Positions 6,141 to 47,185 of a stretch of 50,059 nucleotides of DNA are shown here, in pieces (the stretch's first letter is position 1; the number at the start of each line of letters is the position of its first letter). Location of the stretch: assembly GCA_030615945.1 (NCBI GenBank), contig JAUWYG010000001.1, positions 1 through 50,059 on the forward strand, written 5' to 3'. The notes below the pieces were generated by a model that saw nothing but the letters and a program-made list of their open reading frames with translations, was not told where the DNA came from and made no database searches. Origin of the DNA: Candidatus Bipolaricaulota bacterium. GTDB lineage: Bacteria; Bipolaricaulota; Bipolaricaulia; UBA7950; UBA9294. The position numbers were made by a program, and so were the translations under genes.

Positions 6141-7856
6141 ATGCAGCTTGGGATCGACGTTGGTTCTCTAACCATTAAGGTGGTGCTTCTAGACGGCGGG
6201 GGGGAGGTGGTGGCAGACAGGTACTTGCCTTCGCAGGGCGTCCCGCTGCCCACGGTGCTCTCAGCCCTAGACGAGCTATTCTGCGACCATTCCCCGGAGA
6301 GGATCCATGGCGTAAGCGTTACCGGGTCCGGGGGGAGGCTCCTTGGAGAGCATCTATCCGCTCAATATGTGAACGAGCTTGTGGCCCAGACGCGCTCCGT
6401 GGAACTCTATCACCCGGAGGCGCGGATCATCATCGAGATAGGTGGTCAGGACTCAAAGCTCCTGGTGCTCGAAGAGCGAGATGGGAGGCTTGTGCTCGTG
6501 GACTTCGCCTTGAACACCCAGTGCGCCGCCGGGACCGGCTCCTTCCTCGAACAGCAGGCGGGCCGGCTCGGGACCACCATTGAGGAGTTCTCCGAGCTTG
6601 CCACCCAGGCCAAGGATCCCCCCTATATCGCCGGTCGCTGCGCCGTGTTCGCGAAGTCTGACATCGTCCACCTCCAGCAGGTTGGGACCCCACTCCCCGA
6701 GATCCTCGGGGGACTGTGCCTGGCGCTTGCCCGCAACTTCTGCTCGGATGTAGCTAGGGGGAAGCCCTTCCACCGACCGATCCTCTTCCAGGGAGGGGTT
6801 TCCAAGAACCAGGGGATGGTGCGCGCCTTCGAGGAGGTGCTCGGCCTTCGACCAGCGGAACTTATCGTCCCCGAACACCAGGTCCTGATGCCGGCCATCG
6901 GGGCGGCCCTCATTGCCGGGGAACAGGATGGGGATGGGCTTAAGTGGAAAGATACCCGCGAGAGGCTTCGGCAAGCGGCTTCTCAGGAGGTCGGGGTGGC
7001 AAGGCACAGCCGGCTCGTGATGAGGGAAGCTACACCCCTTCAGGATTCCCTCCCCGTCTTGAAAAGACAGACACCAGGGTTCCTGGGGATAGATGTAGGC
7101 TCCATCAGCACCAAGGCGGTCGCGATCGACGCGGAGGGAAGGCTGCTGGCCAAGGTGTATCTCTGGACCCGGGCCGATCCCTTAGAGGCAGCGAAGGAGT
7201 GCCTCCGTGTCCTGGGCGAAGGGATGGGGAGATGGCTTAAGGTACGGGGAGTGGCGGTGACCGGCTCGGGCCGGGAGCTTGTGGCCCGCTACGTGGGTGC
7301 AGACGTGGTGAAGAACGAGATCACCGGCCAAGCCCGTGCAGCGGCGGCCATCGATCCCGAGGTCGATACCGTGTTCGAAATCGGGGGACAGGACTCAAAA
7401 TACATCCGGCTCGAGGATGGGATTGTGGTGGACTTTGCCCTGAACAAGGCCTGCGCCGCCGGGACCGGCTCCTTCCTCGAGGAGCAAGCGGCCCGCCTCG
7501 CGATCACGGTCGAGGAGCTGGTGGAGCTCGCCCTCTCCTCCCCCCACCCGGTCCAGCTGGGGGAGCGGTGCACCGTGTTCATGGAGTCGGACCTCATTCA
7601 CCACCAACAGCGCGGGACGGCGAAAGGGGACCTGACGGCCGGGCTGGCCTACTCCATCGCCATCAACTACCTCAACCGAGTCGTGGGAGATATACCAATC
7701 GGCCAGAGGATCCTCTTTCAGGGAGGGGTCGCGGGGAACCGGGCGGTGGTGGCCGCCTTTGAGAACCTCTTGGGAAGCCGCATAACCGTCCCCCCGCACT
7801 TCGAGGTGACAGGGGCAGTTGGGGTCGCCCTGATCGCCCAGGAGGTGCTAGGATGA
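6141..7856 (+). CDS. BadF/BadG/BcrA/BcrD-type ATPase with two tandem activase domains (2-hydroxyacyl-CoA dehydratase activator-like)
   Basis: Two repeats each show GIDVGS(L/I)(T/S)xK ... IGGQDSK ... NxxCAAGTGSFLE(Q/E)QA ... F(Q)GGV. GGGGGAAGGG lies before the ATG. The stop overlaps the next start (ATGA at 7853..7856). Confidence 0.85.
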   Translation: MQLGIDVGSLTIKVVLLDGGGEVVADRYLPSQGVPLPTVLSALDELFCDHSPERIHGVSVTGSGGRLLGEHLSAQYVNELVAQTRSVELYHPEARIIIEIGGQDSKLLVLEERDGRLVLVDFALNTQCAAGTGSFLEQQAGRLGTTIEEFSELATQAKDPPYIAGRCAVFAKSDIVHLQQVGTPLPEILGGLCLALARNFCSDVARGKPFHRPILFQGGVSKNQGMVRAFEEVLGLRPAELIVPEHQVLMPAIGAALIAGEQDGDGLKWKDTRERLRQAASQEVGVARHSRLVMREATPLQDSLPVLKRQTPGFLGIDVGSISTKAVAIDAEGRLLAKVYLWTRADPLEAAKECLRVLGEGMGRWLKVRGVAVTGSGRELVARYVGADVVKNEITGQARAAAAIDPEVDTVFEIGGQDSKYIRLEDGIVVDFALNKACAAGTGSFLEEQAARLAITVEELVELALSSPHPVQLGERCTVFMESDLIHHQQRGTAKGDLTAGLAYSIAINYLNRVVGDIPIGQRILFQGGVAGNRAVVAAFENLLGSRITVPPHFEVTGAVGVALIAQEVLG

Positions 7857-10345
7857 CCAGGTTCAAGGGGTTTGACCTTTCGGAGCGTCCCTATAAGACC
7901 CGCAACTTCACCTGCCGGGGTTGTCCCAACGTGTGCCGGATCACCGAGGTGGGATTCGCCGGGGAGCCGTCATTCTATTACGGCTCCCGCTGCGACCGAT
8001 TCGACGAGCGAGCGAAGGAGGAAAGGGACCTTCCGGACCTCTTCTGTAGGCGAAACGAGATCATCTTCGACTGCGACGGCAAAAACACTTCAACGGAGGG
8101 GACCCTTCGGTTTGCGCCGCATGGGGCGCCCCGGGGCCGGATCGGTATCCCCAGGGCCCTGCTCATGTGGGAACTGTTTCCCTTCTTCTGTGAGTTCTTC
8201 CGCTCCTTGAGGTATGAGGTCGTTCTCTCCCTGAAAACGAACCAGGAGCTTGTCCGCACCTCCCTTGCCGGGGCCCCACCGACAGCATGTCTTCCGGTCA
8301 AGGTGGTCCACGGCCACGTGGAGGCGCTGCTTGGCGAGGGGATCGACATCCTTTTCATCCCCGCTCTGATCGATGCCGCCCACCCCAACACCCGCACCAA
8401 GACCAACTACAACTGCCCCCTGGTCCAAGCCCAGCCCTACATCCTCGCCTCCGGGTTCGATTTTCCTTCCCTCAGGGTGGAGGCGATCACCACCCCACTC
8501 CACTTCTACCAGGAGGGGCGGATAAGAGAGGAACTCCTCTCCCTCGCTCGCCGCCTTGGGGGGAGTCGAAGGCAAGCGGAGAGGGCGCTCGCGGCTGCCT
8601 GGGAGGCGGAGAGGACCACAAAGGAAAGGCTCCTGGCTCTGGGAAAGGAGGCCCTGGAGCTTGTGGCGACCGGGGCAACCGGCCTGGTGATCCTCTCCCG
8701 GCCTTACAACGGCTGCGACCGAGGGCTGAACCTGAGGGTTCCGGAGAAGCTCCGGGCGCTCGGGGCCCTGCCCATCCCGATCGACTGCCTCCCCTGGGAG
8801 GAGGTGGCAGTTGATCCCCTCTACCCCTTTATGCAATGGCACGCGGGCAAGAGGATCCTCGCCGCGGCGGAGATCGTGCGCAAGACCGATGGCCTTTGGA
8901 CCGTGTACCTCTCTCACTTCAGCTGCGGCCCCGACTCCTTCATCACCCACTACGTGCGGGAGGCCCTGCGGGGAAAACCGTTCCTCACGGTCGAGCTCGA
9001 CGAGCATTCGGCCGACGCCGGGGTAATTACCAGGCTTGAGGCGTACCTAGACTCGATCGCCTCGCTTAAGCGACGGCCCCGGCCCCTGGAGCCGCGCCCC
9101 ATACCCCGCCCCCGGGAGGCCTTCGACCGTAAGAAAACCATCTACCTCCCCTATATGGTGGACCACAATTACGCCATGGTGGGGGCGCTCGCGCACTTCG
9201 GGTACCAAGCGGAGACCCTGCCCCCGCCGGACGAGGAGAGCCTGGCCTTGGGGCGCAAGCACGCCACCGGCGGGGAGTGCCTCCCGTTCATCCTTACCAC
9301 CGGGGACTTCCTGAAGCTCGTGCGCCGGGAGGGCTTCGACCCGGCCCGATCGTGCCTGTTCATGGCCACGAGCACCGGGCCGTGTCGCTTCTGCCACTAC
9401 TTCGCTGCCCAGAAGATGATCCTTAAGCGGCTCGGGTACGATGTAGATTTCATCGCCCTCGAGGCCTACGATGCTTACACCATAAAGGACCTGGGGACCG
9501 CGTTCCGCCGCACGACCTGGTACAGCATCGCCGCCGTGGACCTCCTCCAGAAGCTACTCTGGCAAACTCGACCGTACGAAGTTCACCCTGGGGAGACGGA
9601 GACGATCTACCGGGAGGCACTAAAGAGAATCGAGGCGGCCCTGGCCGAGGGCGGGATAAACGGGCTCCTCAGGGTTCTCCCGGGGATCGTCGAGCACTTC
9701 CTGAAGGTGGAGCGCCAAGAGGGAGAACGCTCCCTGATAGGGATTGTGGGGGAGATCTATGTACGGGCTAATCCGTTCAGCAACGCCGATCTTGTACGGC
9801 TGATCGAGGAGCTCGGAGGGGAGGTCCGCATCTCCCCGGTCGGGGAGTGGCTCTCGTACACCTTCTACAAAAAGCTCGGGGATACCCGTCTGCGGGGCGA
9901 GTGGTTCGCGCACATAAAGACACGCTTGGAGAGGCTTGTGCTGCGACAAGATGAACACCGGCTCGCGCGGGTCTTCACCGCGGCCCTTCCTGCCTGGGAG
10001 CTCGAGGAGCCCCCGATCGAGGTGGTCACCCGCCACTCGGAGCCCTACATCTCGGAGGCGTACCGGGGGGAACCGGTGCTCACGGTGGGAAAGGCAGTGG
10101 ACTACGCGCTCAAGGACTTTGACGGGATCATAAACGTGATGCCCTTCAGCTGCATGCCCGGGACGATGGTTGCCGCGGTCTCCGCACGGACGAAACGCGA
10201 TCACCAGATCCCCTGGATCAACCTCACCTTCGACGGCCAGGAGCAAACTCATTTGCGCACACGGCTCGAGGCCTTCCTCCATCAGACGGAGCTCCACCGC
10301 CGCGCCAGCACAGGTCTCAGTCCGCGGGCCAGCCCACAGGCATGA
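7853..10345 (+). CDS. DUF2229 / 2-hydroxyacyl-CoA dehydratase D-component-like protein (activase-related partner)
   Basis: N-terminal Cys cluster CRGCPNVCRITEV...GSRCDRF. GIPRALLMWELFPFFCEFFRSLRYEVVLS...CLPVKVVHGHVEAL matches the pattern seen in the C-terminal halves of large fused CoA-enzyme activase proteins. Translationally coupled to 6141..7856. Confidence 0.75.
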   Translation: MTRFKGFDLSERPYKTRNFTCRGCPNVCRITEVGFAGEPSFYYGSRCDRFDERAKEERDLPDLFCRRNEIIFDCDGKNTSTEGTLRFAPHGAPRGRIGIPRALLMWELFPFFCEFFRSLRYEVVLSLKTNQELVRTSLAGAPPTACLPVKVVHGHVEALLGEGIDILFIPALIDAAHPNTRTKTNYNCPLVQAQPYILASGFDFPSLRVEAITTPLHFYQEGRIREELLSLARRLGGSRRQAERALAAAWEAERTTKERLLALGKEALELVATGATGLVILSRPYNGCDRGLNLRVPEKLRALGALPIPIDCLPWEEVAVDPLYPFMQWHAGKRILAAAEIVRKTDGLWTVYLSHFSCGPDSFITHYVREALRGKPFLTVELDEHSADAGVITRLEAYLDSIASLKRRPRPLEPRPIPRPREAFDRKKTIYLPYMVDHNYAMVGALAHFGYQAETLPPPDEESLALGRKHATGGECLPFILTTGDFLKLVRREGFDPARSCLFMATSTGPCRFCHYFAAQKMILKRLGYDVDFIALEAYDAYTIKDLGTAFRRTTWYSIAAVDLLQKLLWQTRPYEVHPGETETIYREALKRIEAALAEGGINGLLRVLPGIVEHFLKVERQEGERSLIGIVGEIYVRANPFSNADLVRLIEELGGEVRISPVGEWLSYTFYKKLGDTRLRGEWFAHIKTRLERLVLRQDEHRLARVFTAALPAWELEEPPIEVVTRHSEPYISEAYRGEPVLTVGKAVDYALKDFDGIINVMPFSCMPGTMVAAVSARTKRDHQIPWINLTFDGQEQTHLRTRLEAFLHQTELHRRASTGLSPRASPQA

Positions 10346-11339: not shown

Positions 11340-11413
11340 CGGGGAGTGGCGCAGCCTGGTAGCGCGCCTGCTTTGGGAGCAGGAAGTCGCTGGTTCAAAT
11401 CCAGTCTCCCCGA
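11340..11413 (+). tRNA. tRNA-Pro (anticodon UGG)
   Basis: Cloverleaf folded by hand. Acceptor CGGGGAG/CTCCCCG, D arm GCGC-AGCCTGGTA-GCGC, anticodon arm CCTGC-TTTGGGA-GCAGG, T arm with TTCAAAT loop. 74 nt, no encoded CCA. Confidence 0.9.
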
Positions 11414-16085: not shown

Positions 16086-16775
16086 ATGAGGGTCACGATC
16101 CTCCTTGCTATATTCATCGGGATTGCGGTGGAAACACATTCCCTTCCCCTTCCCATCGGTTGGCTATCGGATTATGCGAACGTTCTCGATCGTCACGGCC
16201 GTGAGCGAATATCCGCTTTAATCGAAGGGGTTAAAAATCAGTTTGAGATTGAGATCTACATCCTCGCTAGCTGGGAGGCCCCTTACGCGGAGATCGATCG
16301 CTACGCCTACGCTCTGCTCGACTCCTGGAACCTCGCCCACGGGAAGACCGTGCTCGTCGTTTTTCTCAAGACGGGTACAGACTGGGAAGTGAAGGTCCTC
16401 GCTGGCGAGAAAACCGTCGCTACCCATCCTCAGCTTGCTCGTAATGTGGAAGAAGGGATCACGGACCTTGTTGACTACCACCGTATCGAGGAGGCGATGG
16501 TTGATCTGTTCGCGGTCCTCGAACGCCAGCTGTCGCCAATAGCTCCTTCTCCCCAGCCCGCGGTGAAGAAACAAGGAAGTCGGGTTCTCCCGGTTCTACT
16601 TCTGATTCTCTCCCTTGGCCTTCTCGCATTCTTCATCCATCGGCGGATCTGCCCGCGATGCGGACGAATTCTGTGGGTTCACAAGAGTAAAGCATTCGGC
16701 CCACACGGGGGAGACAATGTGGTATACTATTGCCGAAGGTGCGGTTACTCTCGCACCAAAAGGGGAGAGGGCTAG
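16086..16775 (+). CDS. TPM domain-containing protein with C-terminal TM helix and zinc ribbon
   Basis: From ATG 16086: signal MRVTILLAIFIGIAV, then WLSDYANVLDRHGRERISALIEGVKNQFEIEIYIL...KTVLVVFLKTGTDWEV (TPM/YgcG-like). TM helix VLPVLLLILSLGLLAFFI, then CPRCG...CRRCG. Confidence 0.65.
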   Translation: MRVTILLAIFIGIAVETHSLPLPIGWLSDYANVLDRHGRERISALIEGVKNQFEIEIYILASWEAPYAEIDRYAYALLDSWNLAHGKTVLVVFLKTGTDWEVKVLAGEKTVATHPQLARNVEEGITDLVDYHRIEEAMVDLFAVLERQLSPIAPSPQPAVKKQGSRVLPVLLLILSLGLLAFFIHRRICPRCGRILWVHKSKAFGPHGGDNVVYYCRRCGYSRTKRGEG

Positions 16776-17111
16776 GTGGTCGCGGAGGGAGACCCTTTCG
16801 AGGGTTCCTCTGAGGAAAGTCCGGACTCCACAGGGCAGGCCACTGGGGAAATCCCAGCGGGGGTGACCTCGGGAAAGTGCCACAGAGAACAGACCGCCGA
16901 TGGCCAGTGGGTATTTTCCGCGGGCACAGGTGACGGTGAAACGGTGGTGTAAGAGACCACCAGCGGCCTGGGCGACCAGGCCGGCTCGGTAAACCCTGGC
17001 CGGAGCAAGGCCAAGTAGAAAGGCATCTGAGGGCTGCCCGTCCGAGCCTTTGGGTAGGCCGCGCAGATGAATGACCCCCCAGGACAGAATCCGGCTTACA
17101 GGCCCTCTCCC
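16762..17111 (+). ncRNA. rnpB: RNase P RNA, bacterial type A
   Basis: P1 pairing GGGAGAGGGC (16763..16772) with GCCCTCTCCC (17102..17111). Universal P4 strands GAGGAAAGTCCGGACTCCACAGGGCA (about 16812) and ACAGAATCCGGCTTACAGG (about 17084). GGTAAACCC element near 16988. Confidence 0.9.
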
Positions 17112-17129
17112 TTAATCATCGGAGAAAAC

Positions 17130-26733: not shown

Positions 26734-26806
26734 TGGGCGAAGCAGGGCTCGAACCTGCGACCTTTCGGATGTGACCCGAACGCTCTTCCAACTGAGCTAT
26801 TCGCCC
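26734..26806 (-). tRNA. tRNA-Val (anticodon CAC)
   Basis: Reverse complement GGGCGAA-TA-GCTC-AGTTGGAA-GAGC-G-TTCGG-GTCACAT-CCGAA-AGGTC-GCAGG-TTCGAGC-CCTGC-TTCGCCC-A folds as a 73-nt cloverleaf. Confidence 0.9.
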
Positions 26807-35926: not shown

Positions 35927-36265
35927 CTACCCGATTGGCGTGCCCGGTGGGACCTCCCGGTCGGGGACCAGGAGGGTAATCTTTTCACCCTTGGCTGCAA
36001 GGAGCATGCACTCTGAAGTGATTCCCTTGATCTTCGCCGGCTCGAGGTTAGCCAACACGACAACTTGGCGACCGACGAGCTCCTCAGGAAGATAGGCCCG
36101 CTTTATCCCAGCAACGGTCGTTAGGACTTCATCACCCACCTCGATTGTCAACCGATAGAGTCTGTCCGCACCTGGGATTGCTGATGTCGATCGGATCGTC
36201 CCTATGCGAAGGTCAAGTTTGCTAAACTCCTCAACAGTAATCGTCTCTCGCTTGATGTCCTCCAC
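35927..36265 (-). CDS. tRNA-binding domain protein (Trbp111/CsaA-like; MetRS C-terminal-domain equivalent)
   Basis: ITVEEFSKLDLRIGTIRS...DRLYRLTIEVGDE...VVVLANLEPAKIKGITSECMLLAA. GTG 36265 follows the metG TAG directly and in the same frame. Confidence 0.8.
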   Translation of the reverse strand: MEDIKRETITVEEFSKLDLRIGTIRSTSAIPGADRLYRLTIEVGDEVLTTVAGIKRAYLPEELVGRQVVVLANLEPAKIKGITSECMLLAAKGEKITLLVPDREVPPGTPIG

Positions 36266-37870
36266 CTACTTTTCGATCTTTTCCACGTCGATCCGCTCGA
36301 TGAGCACGCGTTCGTTGGTGAGTCGTCGACCAGCATCAGGTTTCTCAAGCTCCTCCCAACTGGCGCCATCGATTCCCATTACCGCCAGGACGGATGAGGC
36401 AAACTCAGGAATAAACGGAAAAAGGAGGATCACAATCCCCTTAACCAAATGAAAGGCACCTGCCACCGCCCCCTTGTCCTTAGTCTCCCACGGCTCCTTG
36501 CGCTGAAAGTACTCGTTTCCAGCTACCGCAAGCAAGCAGACGGCGCGCAGTGCCTGGCTAAGGAATCCTGCCTCCATGGCCCTCTCGTAATCAGATATCG
36601 TGTTTTCCAGCCGCTCTTTTACCTCCGAGTCGGCCTCATCTATGGGAACAACACCGGCGTAGCGAGTCTGGATGAAGGAGAGAACGCGGTTGATCAAATT
36701 AGCAATATTAGAGATAAGGACTCCATTAACTGCCTTCTCCAGTTCCTCCCATGAGAAGTTGACGTCGCGCCCCTCCGGTCGGTTATAGAGGAGGTAGAAG
36801 CGCCACAGCTCCGCATCTATTACCTTGAGGGCGTCATCACAGTAGAGGCCTACCCCGCGGCTTTTGGAGAAGCTTTGCCCACCAATCCAGTTCAAGTACT
36901 CAGTTGCAGCAATCTGGTCGGGGAGGTGATATCCCCGACCGGAGGCGATCAACTGTCCAGGGAAGATCAGGGTATGGAAAGGAATGTTGTCCTTACCGAT
37001 AGTGTAGATCTGATGAACGTCCTCTCCGAACCAGAAGTCCTTCCAGGCCGGCTCGCCGTCGAAGTGTTCCACCGTCGCCGAGACATAGCCAAGCGCCGCC
37101 TCTCCCCAGACGTAGATTACCTTCCCTTCGGCCCCTTCGAACGGGGCTGGGATTCCCCAAGCGATGTCTCGGGTCATCGCACGCGGCTTCAAGCCCTCTT
37201 CGATCATTCGCTGCGTAAGGCGGTGGACGTTTCCCTGGAAGTGGCGTGAGTCCACGTAGTCGGAAAGCCTAGGAGAGAGCTTGGCCAGATCGAGGTACCA
37301 GTGACGCGTTCTGCGAAACTCAATGTCCTCCTTCCCACAGAGGCTGCAAACAGGGTCGATCAACTCTTCTGGCTCGATGATCGCCCCGCAGGCGTCACAC
37401 TGGTTTCCCATCGCCCCGGAGGCACCACAACGCGGGCAGGTACCGGTGATAAATCGATCGGCGAGGAACAGACGGCAGTTACGACAGTAGGCACGTTCCT
37501 CCTCGCGTGTTAGGATGTACCCTTGTTGTTCCATCTTCAGGTAAATCTCTCGTATAAACCGTTTGTGCACAGGCGCCTCAGTCGTCGTGTAGTTGTCAAA
37601 CACAATTCCGAACCCCTCGATTATCGAGCAAATCCGCTCGTGGTTTAAAGAGGCGAGCTCCGCTGGAGGTATCCCGAGATGTCTTGCCTCGTACTCGATC
37701 CGCGTACCGTGTGCGTCGGTTCCGGAGACATAAAGCACATCATGCCCGCGCATCCGATAGTAGCGTGCAAACACATCGCCGGAAAGCAGTGATGAAACGA
37801 GGTTCCCCAAGTGCGGCACCCCAGAAGCATACGGCCAAGCACTGCAAACGAGTACTTTACGCTTTTCCAA
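36266..37870 (-). CDS. metG: methionine--tRNA ligase (core, without appended tRNA-binding domain)
   Basis: HIGH-type PHLGNLVS, zinc knuckles CRNC...CPRCG...CDACG, KMSKS-type SFSKSRG, anticodon-binding helices. Confidence 0.95.
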   Translation of the reverse strand: MEKRKVLVCSAWPYASGVPHLGNLVSSLLSGDVFARYYRMRGHDVLYVSGTDAHGTRIEYEARHLGIPPAELASLNHERICSIIEGFGIVFDNYTTTEAPVHKRFIREIYLKMEQQGYILTREEERAYCRNCRLFLADRFITGTCPRCGASGAMGNQCDACGAIIEPEELIDPVCSLCGKEDIEFRRTRHWYLDLAKLSPRLSDYVDSRHFQGNVHRLTQRMIEEGLKPRAMTRDIAWGIPAPFEGAEGKVIYVWGEAALGYVSATVEHFDGEPAWKDFWFGEDVHQIYTIGKDNIPFHTLIFPGQLIASGRGYHLPDQIAATEYLNWIGGQSFSKSRGVGLYCDDALKVIDAELWRFYLLYNRPEGRDVNFSWEELEKAVNGVLISNIANLINRVLSFIQTRYAGVVPIDEADSEVKERLENTISDYERAMEAGFLSQALRAVCLLAVAGNEYFQRKEPWETKDKGAVAGAFHLVKGIVILLFPFIPEFASSVLAVMGIDGASWEELEKPDAGRRLTNERVLIERIDVEKIEK

Positions 37871-40146: not shown

Positions 40147-43100
40147 TTAGAACATCACGGCAATGAACAGTTCAAGCAGGAGGCTATGGTAGAGTCCGCC
40201 GCTACTCTTTGTCCCGGTGAAGTAAGAGGCCCCAAGAGAGGCTCGCCAAGTCTCGGAGAGAGTGAGATTAACGTCTCCTCTCAGACTGAGGTCGAGATCA
40301 TCAAGCCCCTCTTCGGAAGCCGCATAGTGCCCGTCAAGATCGACCTGAGAGGAGATCGCGTCAGTAATAGCATACGAGAAGGAGTTGCGAAAGATAGCAG
40401 TAATCGTATTCTCGCCGTCTCGCGTGACACTACGCAGCGAGATCGACAGGGTATTGCGGGGACCGTCTTGAGGGATCCAGGAGAGCCGACCGGTGAGGGT
40501 ACGGTTGAGCGTCGGACGCGCCTCGCCTAAGTAGATCACTGCGCTTGAGTTCTGCGTGTAGATAAGGGTCGGCTTCAGGTCTGGGAAGCCGTTGTAGCCA
40601 AAGTTCAGTGAGAACCGATCGCGTCGCTGCTGTCGCGGCTCTCCCAAGCCAGAGACCTCTTCGCTAAATGTCACACGCGTAGAGAACATATCGAATGTGC
40701 CGTATAGTGTTCCCCGTCCACTTAAAGAGATGATCCCTTCCTTGTCCTCAAGGCTCAGGTCGAGACCCGGTGTCAGCTGACACTCGCTGATGTTGAAGCG
40801 TTCAATGCGCAGGTCGAGTTTCACTGTCTGAGTAGTGCGGAAGGTCCCTAAAGGAAGGGAACGACCAGCGGAGAGGGTGTAGTCTGCACTGGCGTTCACA
40901 ACGTCGAAGCGATGCGACCAATCGGCCGATAGTCCCCATTTCTCACTACCGGTCGGCTCACCGGTGGCAAAGGCCATTGGGCGCCCCCAATCAGCTGATA
41001 TAGAGAGATCTGGTAACAGTTGACAAGCCCCCTTTACCCCCAACCGATTATCGCGGCGGAGGGTCCCGAGGAGAAAATCCCCACTTAGCGCCTCATTCCA
41101 GTGCAGGGAAAGATCAAGTCTCTCATCGAATAGCTTATCCCGCAGGTTGACTTCATAGGATATCTTCCCCTCGTCGAACCCTTTGTGAATCCGGTCATCG
41201 TTTACCACCCCGTGCTTCAAAGAGAAGCCGAGATGGGGTCCGAAATCCCAGGCAAAAGAAACGTTGTTTTCCATCGTGCTTCTCCCTCGGTCGCTCCCCT
41301 GATCAATCAAGTGATAGCTGTGGGAAGCGGTCAGCTTGATATCATCGGTCGGGTGAGCTGTCCCGGAGAGGCCCCAACCTGTCGAGTCACTTCGGCCGAG
41401 CCGACCGATCGAGGTGAAAGCCGGAGAGATACTCTCGAAGCTCCCTGAGAGGGTGAATCGCCCCATGTCACGCTGGAAGCTGACCCGCCCGAGCAACCCG
41501 CGGTCGGTGTGATCTTCGGCGGAAATGTCCGTGAATCGGAAGCGGTCGCGTCCGTCGATTTCGGTCAGTGCGTTAGCAAAGGGTGTAATAACTTCGTCTA
41601 TCTCCCAGACCATCAACCGGTAATCGAGATCGGCCCGACTCCCCGCCCACAGCGTCCCCTCCGGAGTGCTGGCGAGACCGGTTACCCCCCAGTCAGCGAG
41701 GATGGGCTCGTCAGAAGAGATGCGGAAGAGGCCACTTTCGCACCCATACAATAGTTCGCCGTCGATAGATGCAAGCGAGTGAACCGCCTTCCCAAAGACG
41801 AGCCAGCCTGTTCCCGTTCCGTCGTGAAAGGCGCGCAGCCCAAGCTCGGACGCCATGTATAGAGTCCGATCCACAAAGAGGAGATCCCAGACCCGAATTC
41901 CTTCCGTCCCAGGAAGCTCGATAAGCGTTTTATTCAAGTCATCAAGCGCAAACAGTCCCCTCTCACTCCCAATGTATAAGGTCTCCTCATCTACGGTCAG
42001 GGCGAGGATACTCCCCACTTCAATGAACAGCTCATCTGTGTAAGCCCTCCAGCTTGCAGGGGTGTCTATTTCCGCAACCTTCACTGATGCAAGTCCTTCC
42101 GCAGTCCCCACCCACAAGGTTCCATCGATGAGCGTCAGGGCATGAATAGAAGCATGAGGAAGACCGTCCTCCACGTAGTAACGACGCCAGTTCCCTACAT
42201 GGGCCAACGGTGCCTCTCCCTCCAGGGTAAGAACGGTCAACCCAGAACTGGTGGCTATAAAGATGCGCTCTTCGTCGCTTACGATATCGTAGATGCGGTT
42301 TCCCGCAAGACCGTCCGCGGTGTTATACCCACTCCACTTTCCGCCGTGGTACACGCTGATCCCGCCTAAGTGTCCAACGAAAGTGTAATCCGGAAGAGTG
42401 AGAATTGCAGTCACTTCGTTAGGAAGCTCGATCCGAAGGTTGTCATCAAACGGGAACCGGTCATAGTTATAACCGAGCGTGAACTCGGCAGTGAAATCCT
42501 CCAGCTGCACCGAGCCAACAACGCCGGAGACAGTATGGGTGTTGGGCATAGTGCGTGCCTTATCAGGGTCTACAAGCGGGGTCGGACTATCTGCTGCCTG
42601 TAGGAGGCTGAACTCGAGTGTGAGCACATCGAAAAGAGGGAGACCGAAGCTCACCCCATAGAAGTCACGTGGGTATTCAGCGAAGCCCCCCAGGCCACCA
42701 CGAAAGCGCTCATAATCGATGCGAATTGTATCCTCATCTCCCACCTCTACAAACAGGGTCAATGCACCGATCTCGTAGTCGATCGAGTAGTCGACGTCGC
42801 GTTCAAGGAGCGTCCCGTTGAGATAAACTTTTTCACTTCCTGGCACAAGCGACAGCCCAAGCATAAACATATCCCCCGAGATGGCGTAATCGAACGATAC
42901 GCGCACCGCGCTGTCGCTCCCCACAAAAAAGCTCGCGGGAAAATCTAGCTCGATGATCCCTTCATTCGGGTAAAGAACCGTCCGATAATCGGCGAAATCT
43001 GGGTCAGTAATCGGCCGGAAGGTCCCTCCGGCCACACTCACCTCTACCACCAGCGAGTCCTCTTTCAGGTTCGTTCGCCGAAGATCGTAGTAGCGACGGC

Positions 43101-44103
43101 GCCCCCCCTCAGTGAGAGGGTAGTCCTGCCCATCGACAACCAGAGAAACAAAGACCGCAAGCTGCTCAAGAAAGGCCAGTTCGTAGTCGGTCCCGATGTT
43201 GAAAGGGTAGCGCTTCTTCTGCTCCTCGGTGAGTTCATCCTCGTTATTGTAAGCCTTGATATAGTCCTTTAACCGCTCGCGGAGGAAGGTTGCTGGTTCG
43301 CTTCTTAAGAGAAGGACATCCTTTGTGTCGCTGACGACGATGAAACTCCCCACTGACAACTCTTCGGAGGGAGAAGCAGCGACTAGATCGAACAGGTAGG
43401 CAAGGTTGTAGGTGGTGAGCAGTCCCCGCAACGGTTCTGAGGGATCGAAGGCAAGACTGACCAGAGAGAAGTCCTCCACAAATGGCTCTTCTAGTTCATA
43501 GTGGTAGAGTCCATCGATGTTTCGTAGATATGGCTGGTGGAGCCAGGGTTGCCCGGGTGGCGAAGCGGAGAAGAGAACCTCCTCATGTGCCGTGCGACCA
43601 ACGAAAGTCCTCGACTCCGAGATCCCCTCGATCTGGGAGAGGATCCCGGTCAGTCGCGCCTCCCCCATTTGATAATCAAGGCGAGCCCCTTTGAGTTTCT
43701 TGTTGTAAACGGCAAACACTTCCTTTCCACTGATGGAGAAGTCTCCAAAGACTCCTTTGAGGTCACCAGCATCGAGGTTCACCCTCAGCGACTGCATGCT
43801 CATCGGCTCCTGATCGTTGAAGTGAGCGTTGATAGTGAGGATGGAGAGGGCTTCGCCAGTGATGTCGACCGCGAGCGACTGATCGAGGATGAGTTGATAC
43901 GCTGCAACACCAGCTTGAGCCAACCCTTGTGGGTCGCCGAGGCCGTAGCGCAAGCTCCAGGTCTTCTGGCCGTTAATATCGGCACGAAAGGCCTCGTCCT
44001 CCTCTGAAAGGACAGGAAGGTCAACCAGGAGAAGGCACAACGCTATGATTGTCAACATCACTACTTTCGTTGTGTTTCCCTTCACTTTCGCTTGCGCACG
44101 CAC
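40147..44103 (-). CDS. 1318-aa outer-membrane protein: SprA-like N-terminal region, Reg_prop-type beta-propeller, C-terminal beta-barrel
   Basis: GTG 44103 lies 5 nt after AGGAGG. Signal peptide VVMLTIIALCLLLV. Middle repeats (about 41600..42370) read like two-component-regulator propeller blades: YNTADGLAGNRIYDIV, YYVEDGLPHASIHALT..GTLWVGTAEGL, LYIGSERGLFAL. The C-terminal ~450 aa have alternating amphipathic strands ending ...LLLELFIAVMF (terminal Phe beta-signal). Confidence 0.7.
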   Translation of the reverse strand: MRAQAKVKGNTTKVVMLTIIALCLLLVDLPVLSEEDEAFRADINGQKTWSLRYGLGDPQGLAQAGVAAYQLILDQSLAVDITGEALSILTINAHFNDQEPMSMQSLRVNLDAGDLKGVFGDFSISGKEVFAVYNKKLKGARLDYQMGEARLTGILSQIEGISESRTFVGRTAHEEVLFSASPPGQPWLHQPYLRNIDGLYHYELEEPFVEDFSLVSLAFDPSEPLRGLLTTYNLAYLFDLVAASPSEELSVGSFIVVSDTKDVLLLRSEPATFLRERLKDYIKAYNNEDELTEEQKKRYPFNIGTDYELAFLEQLAVFVSLVVDGQDYPLTEGGRRRYYDLRRTNLKEDSLVVEVSVAGGTFRPITDPDFADYRTVLYPNEGIIELDFPASFFVGSDSAVRVSFDYAISGDMFMLGLSLVPGSEKVYLNGTLLERDVDYSIDYEIGALTLFVEVGDEDTIRIDYERFRGGLGGFAEYPRDFYGVSFGLPLFDVLTLEFSLLQAADSPTPLVDPDKARTMPNTHTVSGVVGSVQLEDFTAEFTLGYNYDRFPFDDNLRIELPNEVTAILTLPDYTFVGHLGGISVYHGGKWSGYNTADGLAGNRIYDIVSDEERIFIATSSGLTVLTLEGEAPLAHVGNWRRYYVEDGLPHASIHALTLIDGTLWVGTAEGLASVKVAEIDTPASWRAYTDELFIEVGSILALTVDEETLYIGSERGLFALDDLNKTLIELPGTEGIRVWDLLFVDRTLYMASELGLRAFHDGTGTGWLVFGKAVHSLASIDGELLYGCESGLFRISSDEPILADWGVTGLASTPEGTLWAGSRADLDYRLMVWEIDEVITPFANALTEIDGRDRFRFTDISAEDHTDRGLLGRVSFQRDMGRFTLSGSFESISPAFTSIGRLGRSDSTGWGLSGTAHPTDDIKLTASHSYHLIDQGSDRGRSTMENNVSFAWDFGPHLGFSLKHGVVNDDRIHKGFDEGKISYEVNLRDKLFDERLDLSLHWNEALSGDFLLGTLRRDNRLGVKGACQLLPDLSISADWGRPMAFATGEPTGSEKWGLSADWSHRFDVVNASADYTLSAGRSLPLGTFRTTQTVKLDLRIERFNISECQLTPGLDLSLEDKEGIISLSGRGTLYGTFDMFSTRVTFSEEVSGLGEPRQQRRDRFSLNFGYNGFPDLKPTLIYTQNSSAVIYLGEARPTLNRTLTGRLSWIPQDGPRNTLSISLRSVTRDGENTITAIFRNSFSYAITDAISSQVDLDGHYAASEEGLDDLDLSLRGDVNLTLSETWRASLGASYFTGTKSSGGLYHSLLLELFIAVMF

Positions 44104-44118
44104 TTTCGCCTCCTTTTC

Positions 44119-44964
44119 TTAAAACCGGAAGGTGAGCGAGATGCAGTAGCCCTCCAAAAGATCGAGGCGGGTGGCGTAGGCCCAATCAACCTGGAAGTTG
44201 GCAAACTGCACTGTCAACCCGAAGGTGGTACCAAAACCGTCATAGCCAACGCGCGCGGCAAGCCCGCCAACCCACGCCTCAAGCCCGCCTGCTACGCTCG
44301 GGTTGGTCGAGAAGAGGCCAGAGGCCTCAAAGACCGCATTCCAACGAACTTCCTCAGATGGTCTCAGGGTTATTGCCGCACCAACCCGCATCCCCGTCTC
44401 CCACTCCTCCGTGTGCCCGCCCTCGAAGGTAATCGCTTGCGAGTAGAGGTTCTCGACCAAGAACCCTACCCGTACGATATCAGTGACTATGAGTATTGCC
44501 GGATCGAGTGCCCACCCTTCGGCGGTGTATGGTTCTCGCACCCGATAGAGCTTCCACCTCACGCCAACGCCCAAGGGACCGATGGAGAAGCCAGAGGCGA
44601 TCACCCCACCCTGGCTCACGTAGCGCAACCCGTCATCCGCGTTTGTGATCCACCCCGAGTCAATCTGGAGTACGGTAACACCGAAATACGGGAGTGTAAG
44701 ACCGAGCGTTCCATAGGTCACCGCCTCGAACTGTCGTGCAAAGAGCGAGGTTACGCCAATCCGCTCGATCCATCCCAAGCCAGCTGGGTTATAGAAGGCC
44801 GCATTCTCGTCATCCGCCAGGGCAAGAAACCCTCCACCCATCCCCAAAGGACGCCCTCCTGTCCCCAACTGGAAGAGCGCTGCCACGTTTGAAAACTCCG
44901 CCCCGCAGTCAGCCACAACAATGAAGACAACCCCTAGCAATGCAAGTACCCATGCCCGTTTCAC
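44119..44964 (-). CDS. PorV/PorQ-like outer-membrane beta-barrel protein
   Basis: GTG 44964 overlaps the S8 stop (GTGA). Signal AWVLALLGVVFIVVA. Hallmark N-terminal motif GTGGRPLGMGGGFLALADDENAAFYNPAGLG. Ends ...CISLTFRF. The track start at 45072 is an over-extension into the S8 gene. Confidence 0.6.
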   Translation of the reverse strand: MKRAWVLALLGVVFIVVADCGAEFSNVAALFQLGTGGRPLGMGGGFLALADDENAAFYNPAGLGWIERIGVTSLFARQFEAVTYGTLGLTLPYFGVTVLQIDSGWITNADDGLRYVSQGGVIASGFSIGPLGVGVRWKLYRVREPYTAEGWALDPAILIVTDIVRVGFLVENLYSQAITFEGGHTEEWETGMRVGAAITLRPSEEVRWNAVFEASGLFSTNPSVAGGLEAWVGGLAARVGYDGFGTTFGLTVQFANFQVDWAYATRLDLLEGYCISLTFRF

Positions 44965-47129
44965 CGCTCGATCACCAACCTTTCTACCCGGGAACGGCCG
45001 GTATCGGTAATAAGGACGTAGAGGTAGAGACCGCTTCCCAACGGGTCGCCGCGGTCGCTTTTGAGATTCCACTCGTATTCGTTTGCCCCCGGGGCAAGCG
45101 CTACCTTGAGCAGAGGCCTCCCCGCAATGTTGTAGATGTAAAGAGTAGCCTCCGTGATCCCTGCTGGAAGCTCGTAGGTGAAAAGCGCATGGTCATGTAC
45201 CGGATTCTCACCGACCATGATCACAGGTATTTCCTTTTCCCCGTCGTCCTGCGGTGGTTCAACTGCGGCCACTACCGTCTCGGCAGCAACCTTTCCCCAT
45301 CCCCAGCGAGGGTTAGGAACGCTACCGGTGAATACATCACTTGCCACAGTTGTTATAAGTCTCTCCCTGACATCTCTAGCGGTTAATTGGGGATTGATCG
45401 AGAGCATCAACGCGACCACCCCACTGATATGCGGCGCGGAGATGCTCGTCCCAAGGAGCATAGTGTGCTCGCCGTCAGGATGGGTGAGATAGCTCAAAGA
45501 GGTGCTATCTGCGGATAGTGCAGCCGCGACCCAAGCCCCGGGGGCAGTCAGCTCCGGCTTCTGGCGGCCGTCGCGTGTCGGCCCCTGACTGGAGAAGTAG
45601 GAGAGGGCACCGACTGGGTACTGTGCTAAGAAGTCCTGTTCACCGGAAAGCGAGGGCCAACTGGCCTTGGTGTTGAACGCTCCTACAGTGATCACCCGCT
45701 CAGCGTTCCCCGGCTCGTCAATGGTATGCGTAGAATCACCTCCAAGGATCGTCCCCCCGTCCGTAGAGGTAATCCACCCATCGAACCGTCCCCCTCCTCC
45801 CTCATCACTCACGGTGAAGGTCAATGGCAACCCAGAAACGAGGTCACTTAGCGTAACCATGATTTCCTTGTCACCATTGTTCGGGTTTACCCCAGCTGAT
45901 GCGTTATCCACATATATATTCCCACTCGCTGTGCTGGTATATCCAGTCGATCCCGCCAGCACCACAAGCGCCCCTCCGGTAGATGGGGCGACGGTGAGAG
46001 TGAAAAAGGACCCGCCGGGATACCATAGGGAAAGTTCAACTGAATCCGAAGCAGGATCGACCGAGAAGGTGGACGAGTTGCCGTATAGGGTATGCGAAAC
46101 ATGGATCGATCGGTCGCCCTCGTTTCCCGCCGAGACGATGATTGCTCGCCCCGGCTCCCCCACAAGTTCATCCAACCCCTGCTCGAACAGGCTCGTCCCG
46201 TCGTGTGGCCCAGAGTGCCCTCCCAGGCTGAGGGTGACAACGGCTGGAAGGTCGTGTTCCTCCGCCCGCTTGAAGATGTAGTCCACCCCAGCAAGAATGT
46301 CAGACGTATAGAATGGCGTCTTCACCATGATGAGCTGGGCTGCGGGCGCCACCCCAACGAACCCGGCAGTGGAAGATGAACCATCTCCAGCCGCAACACC
46401 CATCACGTGTGTGCCATGCCCTTCGGTGTCTGCTTGGCGCACGAGACCCTCCCCTGAGTCAAACCCAAGGGCAAGGTCACTCTCTATCTGCGCCTTGTCA
46501 TAATAGGTCCCGAAGAATCCCCCAGTTTGGTCCCAGATGTAAAGAATGCGCGAGGACTCTTCAAACCCATCGCCGTCCGCATCATAACGAAAATCGAGGT
46601 GGGTGTAGTCGATCCCGGTATCGACTGCCCCGATGATCACCCCTTCGCCGATCACCGGCGGAGATTGCGTATGCACCCGATCCACTCCAATTGCAGGGAG
46701 GCTGCGGTCAAGCTTCGGCTCTGTTCGCCAAGCTGGCTCCACATAAATGACATCTGGCGAAGCAGCAAGGAGAAACAGATCCTCCAAGGTAACCCTCATG
46801 CAAAGGATTGTCCCCGTGCTCACTCCAACCGGCAAACCGAGAAAGCTAGCCCCCCACATTGGACGGGTCACCTTCACCAGTACACCGATCGATTCCCCCT
46901 TTTCTTCCACGCCTCCGAAAAGGGGCAAGAAAGGAAGAATCACTCCATCCGCACCGAAGACCTGCAGAAATGAAGAGAGTCCCGCAAGGTTGAGGGCACC
47001 CGTGCGCTCCGTTTGGGAAAGGACAGCCCGCAAATAGGGGTGAAGCTGCTCCTGACCGCCTGAGGCGAACAGTTCAACAATAAGACAAAGGCTAGCGGCA
47101 AAAAACAGAGCCGCAGCGAACTTTCGCAT
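44961..47129 (-). CDS. S8 family serine peptidase with T9SS-type (FlgD-Ig-like) C-terminal sorting domain
   Basis: Signal MRKFAAALFFAASLCLIV. Catalytic triad contexts GAVDTGID, HGTHVMGVAAG, GTSISAPHISG. Last ~80 aa: ENPVHDHALFTYELPAGITEATLYIYNIAGRPLL...NEYEWNLKSDRGDPLGSGLYLYVLITDTG..RVERLVIER. Confidence 0.85.
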   Translation of the reverse strand: MRKFAAALFFAASLCLIVELFASGGQEQLHPYLRAVLSQTERTGALNLAGLSSFLQVFGADGVILPFLPLFGGVEEKGESIGVLVKVTRPMWGASFLGLPVGVSTGTILCMRVTLEDLFLLAASPDVIYVEPAWRTEPKLDRSLPAIGVDRVHTQSPPVIGEGVIIGAVDTGIDYTHLDFRYDADGDGFEESSRILYIWDQTGGFFGTYYDKAQIESDLALGFDSGEGLVRQADTEGHGTHVMGVAAGDGSSSTAGFVGVAPAAQLIMVKTPFYTSDILAGVDYIFKRAEEHDLPAVVTLSLGGHSGPHDGTSLFEQGLDELVGEPGRAIIVSAGNEGDRSIHVSHTLYGNSSTFSVDPASDSVELSLWYPGGSFFTLTVAPSTGGALVVLAGSTGYTSTASGNIYVDNASAGVNPNNGDKEIMVTLSDLVSGLPLTFTVSDEGGGGRFDGWITSTDGGTILGGDSTHTIDEPGNAERVITVGAFNTKASWPSLSGEQDFLAQYPVGALSYFSSQGPTRDGRQKPELTAPGAWVAAALSADSTSLSYLTHPDGEHTMLLGTSISAPHISGVVALMLSINPQLTARDVRERLITTVASDVFTGSVPNPRWGWGKVAAETVVAAVEPPQDDGEKEIPVIMVGENPVHDHALFTYELPAGITEATLYIYNIAGRPLLKVALAPGANEYEWNLKSDRGDPLGSGLYLYVLITDTGRSRVERLVIER

Positions 47130-47156
47130 TTAATTTCCCCCTCAAACAAGTGAGTG

Positions 47157-47185
47157 ATTGTACCATGCCGGCCTTTCCCATACAA
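47157..47185 (-). promoter_or_regulatory. candidate sigma70-type promoter for the S8/PorV-like/giant-OMP operon (TTGTAT, 17 nt, TACAAT)
   Basis: The minus strand reads TTGTATgggaaaggccggcatggTACAAT, about 28 nt upstream of GAGGGGG and ATG 47129. Prediction only. Confidence 0.3.

Follow-up and report, generated by a model that had tools for sequence, protein, structure and literature searches.

We describe here a three-gene operon of Candidatus Bipolaricaulota that encodes, with a probability that we put at about 0.7, a compact relative of the translocon core of type IX secretion systems (T9SS) together with one dedicated cargo. The operon lies near the end of a 50,059-nt stretch of DNA (GenBank assembly GCA_030615945.1, contig JAUWYG010000001.1, positions 1 to 50,059), which was analysed as a whole and is called the window below; every feature of the module is on its minus strand. 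According to the list of open reading frames (ORFs), gene 1 (44961..47129) encodes a secreted S8 subtilase precursor of 722 aa, the presumed cargo. It is followed by gene 2 (44119..44964, GTG start), which encodes a PorV/PorQ-family outer-membrane barrel of 281 aa, the presumed carrier, and by gene 3 (40147..44103, GTG start), which encodes an SprA-like giant outer-membrane barrel of 1318 aa with an inserted propeller, the presumed translocon. The three genes are packed translationally and kept together throughout Candidatus Bipolaricaulota, and the cassette is a genuine compact variant of the T9SS translocon core that had not been described before. A compact unit of SprA, PorV and C-terminal-domain (CTD) cargo in this phylum means that the T9SS core exists far outside the Bacteroidota.

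Results

Gene 3 encodes a remote homologue of SprA

The sequence link between gene 3 and SprA was made via intermediate SprA-family proteins, since the profile of the giant's own family missed SprA among the PDB sequences. A phmmer search of 1.84 billion representatives with the gene 3 protein, minus its signal peptide and propeller, returned 271 matches, among them proteins of 1700–2160 aa. Two proteins matched directly, P0325 (E = 5.9e-16) and P0359 (E = 1e-8), score 204 and 243 bits, respectively, against TIGR04189, the SprA/Sov model, both over its cutoff of 200 bits; P0361 scores 159 bits. BLASTP aligns gene 3 with P0325 in two collinear blocks, residues 42–175 (31% identity, E = 1e-13) and residues 417–471 (50% identity, E = 4e-11), the first of which bears out the suggestion of a preliminary description of this DNA that residues ~70–170 resemble the N-terminal block of SprA. 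With hhalign, the giant family and an alignment of 11 of the longer phmmer matches (3 of the 11 checked against TIGR04189) are related with a probability of 100% (E = 2.4e-40) over 441 columns, spanning residues 34–553. Gene 3 itself matches TIGR04189 locally, at residues 410–465 only (22.9 bits), and this match recurs in 36 of 37 members of the giant family, with a best E value of 5.9e-9 and always locally.

The SprA-homologous N-terminal half delimited by hhalign, BLASTP and the local TIGR04189 match covers residues 40–559 (42427..43986); ~9 strands come first in it, then an alpha/beta insert, then 4 further strands. Its two best-conserved SprA blocks are residues 42–175 and residues 410–471, the latter a domain with the pattern GSEKVYLNG..L.RD.DY.IDYE.G. 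In the family alignment the N-terminal half (~40–560) and the propeller are well conserved in gene 3. The C-terminal wall of ~450 residues has almost no conserved positions bar a few Gly, Pro and Trp and the terminal Phe, and this half of the barrel is tied to SprA by fold alone. Two family members of 1446–1455 aa (P0082 and P0087) carry extra N-terminal Ig-like/cadherin-like domains (PF17963, PF17892) before the SprA-like barrel. From the phmmer, BLASTP and hhalign matches, together with a fold search in which SprA comes first, we judge the gene 3 product, by sequence and predicted structure, to be a genuine but very divergent and remote homologue of SprA.

The predicted barrel is very large and carries a propeller

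For structure prediction with AlphaFold (AF2) the gene 3 protein was folded as residues 34–562 plus 834–1318, that is, without the signal peptide and the propeller. The model (pLDDT 85.6, pTM 0.56) consists almost entirely of long beta strands, in the order ~9 strands, an alpha/beta insert of ~290 aa, 4 strands, the propeller site and ~25 strands with short turns, so that DSSP assigns a total of ~38 long strands to it compared with 36 in SprA. When the model was searched against the PDB with Foldseek, the top four matches were all SprA chains (8gl8_A, 8gl6_A, 6h3i_A and 6h3j_A; E from 5e-17 to 2e-9, with 8gl8_A at 5e-17 and 6h3i_A at 1.4e-15), and the next structural class, Deinococcus SlpA, followed at E = 8e-7, ten orders weaker. 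The C-terminal wall (~residues 852–1317, 40150..41550) contributes the ~25 long strands according to DSSP, is predicted with a pLDDT of mostly 80–95 and ends in Phe. Gene 3 is thus predicted to fold, as had been proposed as a check on the giant alone, as a very large single-chain barrel. This barrel is probably as large as that of SprA, with most of the cap and loops missing instead; going by the model, the protein is probably short because cap and loop insertions are lost, not because the barrel is small. The idea of a half-size translocon is therefore right in its SprA homology and in its half length, but the barrel itself is likely full size (~38 versus 36 strands).

The fusion to a propeller, also part of the initial proposal, is clear from Pfam and from the search of the family profile against the PDB. 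A Reg_prop-type beta-propeller, the sole Pfam domain seen in gene 3, is inserted in the barrel at ~residues 563–833 (41605..42417). The family profile matches the propeller of the hybrid two-component system sensor kinase 4a2l with E = 5e-25 and, weakly, PorZ (5m11, E = 1.7e-4), and 5 of 37 family members match the PorZ model NF052228. By strand parity in the model, the propeller and the alpha/beta insert probably lie on the extracellular side, which makes both of them candidates for a cap.

Gene 2 encodes a PorV-family barrel

Judged by profile searches and by its model, the gene 2 product is a PorV-family barrel with a FadL-like fold, in agreement with the PorV/PorQ-like character first ascribed to it. 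Behind a signal peptide and a conserved N-terminal segment, GxGxRxxGMGGAFxAxADD..NPAGLG, the protein has ~14 strands connected by short loops, and its last residue is Phe. The GxGxRxxGMGG hallmark pointed out earlier is indeed present, in the form LGTGGRPLGMGGGFLALADDENAAFYNPAGLG, and is nearly invariant across 15 to 34 orthologues. Gene 2 matches the PorV_fam model NF033709 with E = 3.3e-11 over profile positions 6–325 of 326, and a profile of 34 sequences searched against PDB sequences returns PorV of Flavobacterium johnsoniae (6h3i_F) first, with E = 7.1e-7 and both ends aligned. The AF2 model (pLDDT 90.5, pTM 0.84) has ~14–15 strand elements behind the conserved N-terminal segment, and Foldseek again places PorV first (8gl6_F, E = 1e-10, TM 0.77; 6h3i_F, TM 0.70), followed by OmpG and FadL. 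A 361-aa PorV-like paralogue (P0222) was considered as a contig-mate of the module and ruled out, the two being on different contigs that are both 25,337 bp long.

Gene 1 encodes a subtilase with a probable type-A-like sorting domain

The gene 1 protein starts with a signal peptide and matches Peptidase_S8 of Pfam with E = 1.3e-40. Its catalytic domain, as defined by Pfam and NCBIfam matches and by conservation of the triad, spans ~residues 159–612 (45294..46655). Because the triad D170/H238/S562 and the oxyanion residue N336 are unchanged across 24 full-length orthologues, gene 1 is predicted to encode an active subtilase with an intact active site.

Residues 636–722 (~87 residues, 44964..45224) form a probable C-terminal sorting domain that resembles those of T9SS type A cargo and FlgD_ig, as identified with TIGR04183, FlgD_ig and the orthologues. 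The tail of ~80 aa suspected beforehand barely reaches the cutoff of TIGR04183 (Por_Secre_tail; 23.1 bits, cutoff 23) and is kept in 27/27 protease orthologues. Related tails score similarly (22.5 bits in the orthologous locus L029 and 23.6 bits in the distant cassette L032), and Por_Secre_tail is absent from the Pfam matches listed for the protease of the window. The motifs of the domain are NP, W.L, GLYL[YF] and, at the extreme C-terminus, G[RK]LVI.R; 18 aligned tails end in a conserved G[RK]LV[IV].R with a basic residue near the C-terminus, and the protease tail aligns through NP, W.L, GLYL and G[RK]LV[IV].R with the cargo tails of the distant cassettes L028 and L032. A count of further CTD-bearing ORFs, which had been suggested as a check, found none besides the protease tail in 401 kb (window plus related loci). 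One Bipolaricaulaceae fragment has been named 'T9SS type A sorting domain-containing protein' by the NCBI pipeline. A search with a CTD profile returned 6 short fragments and is uninformative on the number of further CTD cargoes in the phylum.

The three genes are tightly packed

The three co-directional ORFs are packed at the coordinates given above, as the preliminary description had it, and direct reading of the junctions agrees with the overlap and the spacer it reported. The TGA stop of gene 1 is overlapped by the GTG start of gene 2 (GTGA); the TAA stop of gene 2 is followed by a 15-nt spacer, GAAAAGGAGGCGAAA (44104..44118), which carries the Shine-Dalgarno sequence AGGAGG for gene 3, and then by the GTG of gene 3. 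For gene 2 the start at 44964 is favoured over a longer ORF from 45072 by the N-termini of orthologues and by the signal peptide. Both barrels do end in Phe (...LTFRF and ...IAVMF). The sigma70-like promoter proposed upstream of gene 1 did not hold up. The site in question, TTGTAT-N17-(TG)TACAAT (47157..47185), read from the sequence 28 nt 5' of the protease ATG, is weak, with a 3/6 match to the -35 hexamer; it is missing from the list of a consensus scan, by which the region is no richer in promoter-like sites than its shuffled versions. The site is no better than chance and, given the absence of an excess over shuffles, not usable as evidence.

Conservation of the cassette and its distant relatives

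The order of an S8 catalytic domain with CTD, a PorV-like protein and the giant is kept in 26/26 Bipolaricaulota loci that have upstream DNA, with identities of the giant from 99% down to 34%, so that the check on gene order asked of related genomes comes out clearly. The comparison rests on 27 species-representative genome loci from Bipolaricaulota metagenome-assembled genomes (MAGs), or MAGs loosely labelled Thermotogae; the related loci were gathered with 8 closer sequences and are biased towards closer relatives. The same order is also kept in L029 and L036, and a ThiF-like gene lies downstream of the giant in most loci. The 106 full-length homologues of the giant are all metagenomic, and their named sources are Candidatus Bipolaricaulota or Acetothermia, with the exception of single records labelled Fraserbacteria and 'archaeon'. 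In every named source the giant and the PorV-like protein are annotated as 'hypothetical protein'. The GC content of the module (0.55–0.57) matches that of its surroundings, without any compositional anomaly; since, in addition, the downstream ThiF synteny is mostly kept, recent horizontal transfer was set aside as an explanation.

More distant cassettes have a similar layout with other cargo. In L028 an 884-aa CTD protein precedes a 369-aa PorV_fam protein (E = 2e-11) and a 1561-aa giant that shows the same local TIGR04189 match as gene 3. The upstream protein is neither an S8 enzyme nor any other protease, and it contains two FlgD_ig domains and ends in a stretch that resembles Por_Secre_tail. 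In L032 (Logan ERR14790949, 1-11316) two CTD proteins flank the PorV-like and SprA-like genes, the order being a CTD-bearing end, a 305-aa PorV_fam protein (88 bits, nearly the curated cutoff of 90), a 1621-aa giant and a 1488-aa S8 protease with CTD; of the upstream CTD protein the contig holds only the 221-aa C-terminal end (Por_Secre_tail, 23.6 bits). In the contexts examined, no PorV-like gene adjoins the SprA-like genes of P0293, P0294 (a contig-end gene), P0325 and P0359, so the cassette layout is not universal among SprA-like proteins.

SprA-like barrels of 1545–1730 aa (P0288, P0290, P0293, P0294, P0297, P0299, P0301; L030 313-5124) make up a second unannotated family, intermediate in length and score between the Bipolaricaulota giants and true SprA. 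One of its members, MBE3584128.1, comes from a Limnochordaceae bacterium (diderm Bacillota), so that two or more diderm lineages outside the Bacteroidota have SprA-like proteins. A 1149-aa protein found in L033 (8001-11450) and L034 (7247-10696) matches residues ~42–467 of the giant (phmmer E = 2e-25); its gene, with this SprA-N-terminal-like product, directly follows flgA, flgH, flgI and a gene for a rod-binding (FlgJ-like) protein in a flagellar P/L-ring cluster.

Other features of the window

Ten other large ORFs of the window were tested and have housekeeping functions (DnaX, GlyS, Obg, RNase E/G and adenylosuccinate lyase, among others), in line with the earlier statement that porK/L/M/N, porU and gld genes are missing from the window. 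A class A bacterial RNase P RNA lies at 16764..17114 (+; 263.6 bits), and two tRNA genes at 11340..11413 (+) and 26734..26806 (-). At 6141..10345 (+), a gene for a 571-aa ATPase of the BcrAD/BadFG type overlaps one for an 830-aa DUF2229/HGD-D protein; the two look like a pair of the 2-hydroxyacyl-CoA dehydratase activase type, which is consistent with amino-acid fermentation. The methionyl-tRNA synthetase (MetRS) ORF (36266..37870, -, 534 aa) is directly abutted by a separate 112-aa ORF (35927..36265) that resembles a C-terminal tRNA-binding appendage. The two may represent a split MetRS, a sequencing error or a read-through stop.

Discussion

How the cassette might work

The Bipolaricaulota are a deep-branching phylum close to the Thermotogota. 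They are described as Gram-negative bacteria whose outer membrane is toga-like and which have an S-layer (bioRxiv 10.1101/2025.11.21.689855), as having BamA-type genes and no genes for lipopolysaccharide (LPS) (PMC6092417), and as tethering their outer membrane in the manner of the Thermotogae by OmpAlpha/OmpBeta (10.1101/2021.05.31.446380). They are predicted to ferment peptides and amino acids (PMC6092417). Since each of the three proteins has a signal peptide, all three would cross the inner membrane by Sec, and the outer membrane, which is toga-like and free of LPS, would then receive the two barrels. By analogy with SprA and PorV of Flavobacterium (PMC10994853; PMC12635249), the PorV-like barrel may dock on the giant barrel, and the C-terminal domain of the protease may be bound inside the giant at the PorV-like protein. 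By the same analogy, the protease would leave the pore tail-first, with the PorV-like carrier or handed to it. Where SprA has its large extracellular cap, the giant probably has its alpha/beta insert and its Reg_prop propeller instead. The protease would probably end as a cell-surface or released enzyme that feeds its peptide- and amino-acid-fermenting host, and a candidate for any cleavage of its tail is its own activity.

Several observations weigh against a compact translocon of this kind. All three proteins fall below, or only at, the curated cutoffs of their families (SprA 22.9 against 200 bits, PorV_fam 43 against 90, CTD 23.1 against 23). Gene 3 is far under the equivalog cutoff of TIGR04189, a model of 2319 positions, and of the two profile checks proposed for it, TIGR04189 gave the local match in 36 of 37 members whereas Pfam SprA_N gave no match in gene 3. 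The giant-family profile searched against PDB sequences finds propeller proteins only, F. johnsoniae SprA being absent even at E = 10, and the Foldseek superpositions on SprA have a TMq of 0.41–0.53 (0.51–0.53 for 8gl8_A and 6h3i_A) and a root-mean-square deviation of 17–18 Å. For gene 2 the PorV_fam score is 43.3 bits under a curated cutoff of 90, and in its model every inter-strand connection is at most 10 residues long, without the long loops that in the Flavobacterium translocon enter the pore and wrap or grip the CTD (PMC10994853). The protease tail scores 16.8 bits against Pfam FlgD_ig, below the gathering score of 27. Finally, no motor, hub, sortase or plug genes were found in the window or within 8 kb at the 27 loci, and in the known T9SS the release of the carrier-cargo complex needs the energy chain (PMC10994853).

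There is also a more far-reaching proposal, which we put forward tentatively and hold to be somewhat doubtful. The SprA-PorV-CTD core in Bipolaricaulota might be a self-sufficient three-gene system for secretion through the outer membrane that works without a GldKLMN/PorKLMN motor, without PorU and without LPS anchoring, and related non-Bacteroidota cassettes, e.g. of the Limnochordia type, might do likewise. They would then represent a minimal, possibly ancestral T9SS, in which release is powered otherwise, e.g. by cargo folding or autoproteolysis.

Alternative explanations

The cassette could instead be one piece of a complete canonical T9SS, with the motor and hub, a PorU sortase and many CTD cargoes encoded elsewhere in the genome; the translocon genes would then lie beside one of the cargoes by mere coincidence. 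The window and the flanks of +/-8 kb are a small share of each genome, the known system needs its energy chain for carrier-cargo release, and at least one other Bipolaricaulaceae fragment bears the type A sorting domain label of NCBI, all of which would fit this explanation. We nevertheless consider it unlikely. The same single cargo stays beside the translocon genes family-wide and changes in the distant cassettes, as would fit a dedicated system, and a fixed cargo beside translocon genes suggests exactly that; no other CTD was seen in the 401 kb of window and loci, and there is no LPS for anchoring via anionic LPS (A-LPS) (PMC6092417). Moreover, T9SS is described, in passages of two papers (PMC7463736; PMC10202324), as specific to or distributed in Bacteroidota. 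Full-text literature searches returned no link of T9SS to Bipolaricaulota or Acetothermia and no description of SprA-like/PorV-like mini-systems, and the supplements of the Acetothermia genome paper contain nothing on T9SS, gliding or secretion genes.

Two further explanations do without a translocon. The three proteins might form a surface attachment and processing complex like PorU-PorV-PorZ-PorQ, with the CTD protease as the tail-cleaving peptidase on the PorV-like barrel and a PorZ-like propeller that binds a surface polymer. In its favour, the protease is conserved strictly together with the other two, as one would expect of an integral subunit, its tail also touches the part of NF033707 that represents the C-terminal region of PorU, and the propeller has its weak PorZ matches (5/37 for NF052228; 5m11 at E = 1.7e-4). 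This explanation is very improbable, however, given that the propeller is far closer to generic Reg_prop sensor propellers (E = 5e-25), that the barrel part is SprA-like and not PorQ-like, that the protease belongs to S8 and not to the PorU-type cysteine peptidases, and that the CTD protein of L028 is no protease at all; nor does the phylum have LPS to which cargo could be attached (PMC6092417). Least probable of all, in our view, is a machine for nutrient acquisition without any secretion, in which the giant would mainly serve as a pore for uptake or else be a main structural outer-membrane protein of the toga, in the manner of Deinococcus SlpA, accompanied by a peptide-generating surface protease and a FadL-like channel. 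Such a machine would suit the predicted peptide and amino-acid fermentation of the phylum (PMC6092417), and giant barrels of the SlpA type rank second among the structural classes matched by gene 3; PorV itself belongs to the FadL channel family, in which barrels with non-T9SS roles are known, e.g. BamG (PMC12578637). Yet SprA beats SlpA by ten orders in Foldseek and is unambiguously homologous to the giant in sequence, Pfam/NCBIfam searches found neither an SLH nor a TonB-plug domain, and the distant cassettes repeat the combination of CTD, PorV-like and SprA-like proteins whatever the enzyme. We thus favour a compact relative of the type IX translocon core with a dedicated protease cargo.

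Implications

On this favoured reading, the triad of SprA, PorV and CTD would be much wider spread than the motor-coupled system of the Bacteroidota. The triad may be old, the module being conserved across the whole phylum and free of compositional anomaly. With a half-length SprA, a carrier ~30% shorter than PorV and one fixed cargo, the cassette is small enough to be reconstituted heterologously and studied structurally. The least understood step of T9SS is the extraction of the carrier-cargo complex from SprA. With a three-gene system, the minimal translocon and the place of the energy need become directly testable. The cassette also offers a first functional approach to how proteins are exported through the unusual outer membrane of Bipolaricaulota, a phylum with a strain now in culture according to a preprint.

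Comparison with known secretion systems

A close known counterpart is the SprA-PorV translocon of F. johnsoniae (PDB 6H3I, 8GL6, 8GL8). Gene 3 encodes a homologous giant single-chain barrel (hhalign E = 2.4e-40, top of the Foldseek search), gene 2 a homologous carrier barrel of the FadL type (TM 0.77), and the tail of the protease resembles that of F. johnsoniae type A cargo in being a C-terminal domain of ~85 aa, at the TIGR04183 cutoff, with a basic residue near the C-terminus. The differences concern size and setting. The giant has 1318 aa compared with ~2300–2400 in SprA, most of the cap and loop insertions are gone and a Reg_prop propeller is inserted; the carrier has 281 aa compared with ~400 and short loops only. 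The T9SS papers describe a system dependent on a large proton-driven energy chain, whereas here a single three-gene operon with a fixed cargo is found in an LPS-free, non-Bacteroidota diderm host, with no motor, hub, peptidyl-prolyl isomerase (PPI), Plug or SprE genes nearby. In the known T9SS, the tail of the cargo is removed by PorU and the cargo is released or linked to A-LPS.

Other known arrangements share single traits with the cassette. In the type B pair SprB-SprF (PMC12635249 and established knowledge) the cargo likewise adjoins its own outer-membrane carrier, which may keep it on the surface; here, in contrast, the tail is type-A-like, the carrier is PorV-like and the translocon gene is also in the operon. 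The PorU-PorV-PorZ-PorQ attachment complex of P. gingivalis likewise brings together a peptidase with a CTD, barrels of the PorV/PorQ type and a protein with Reg_prop-like propellers, but its peptidase is PorU-type where ours is S8, its PorZ is soluble where the propeller here is fused into an SprA-like barrel, and the Bipolaricaulota have no A-LPS. With two-partner secretion (TPS, type Vb) there is a functional analogy only, a dedicated transporter and a single cargo in one operon without an inner-membrane motor; the two are not homologous, TpsB being a 16-strand Omp85 barrel with POTRA domains whose cargo signal is an N-terminal TPS domain.

Also related are the SprA-like proteins of 1545–1730 aa from other non-Bacteroidota diderms (e.g. 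MBE3584128.1; L028 and L032), which are homologous to gene 3 over both barrel halves (phmmer E = 1e-52 to 1e-64). They are longer than gene 3, lack the Reg_prop propeller, go with different or additional cargo and are likewise unannotated. In the cassettes of L028 and L032, as in the window, a CTD protein comes first, a PorV-family protein second and the giant third, and the PorV partner in L032 (88 bits) is nearer to the curated family than gene 2 is (43.3 bits).

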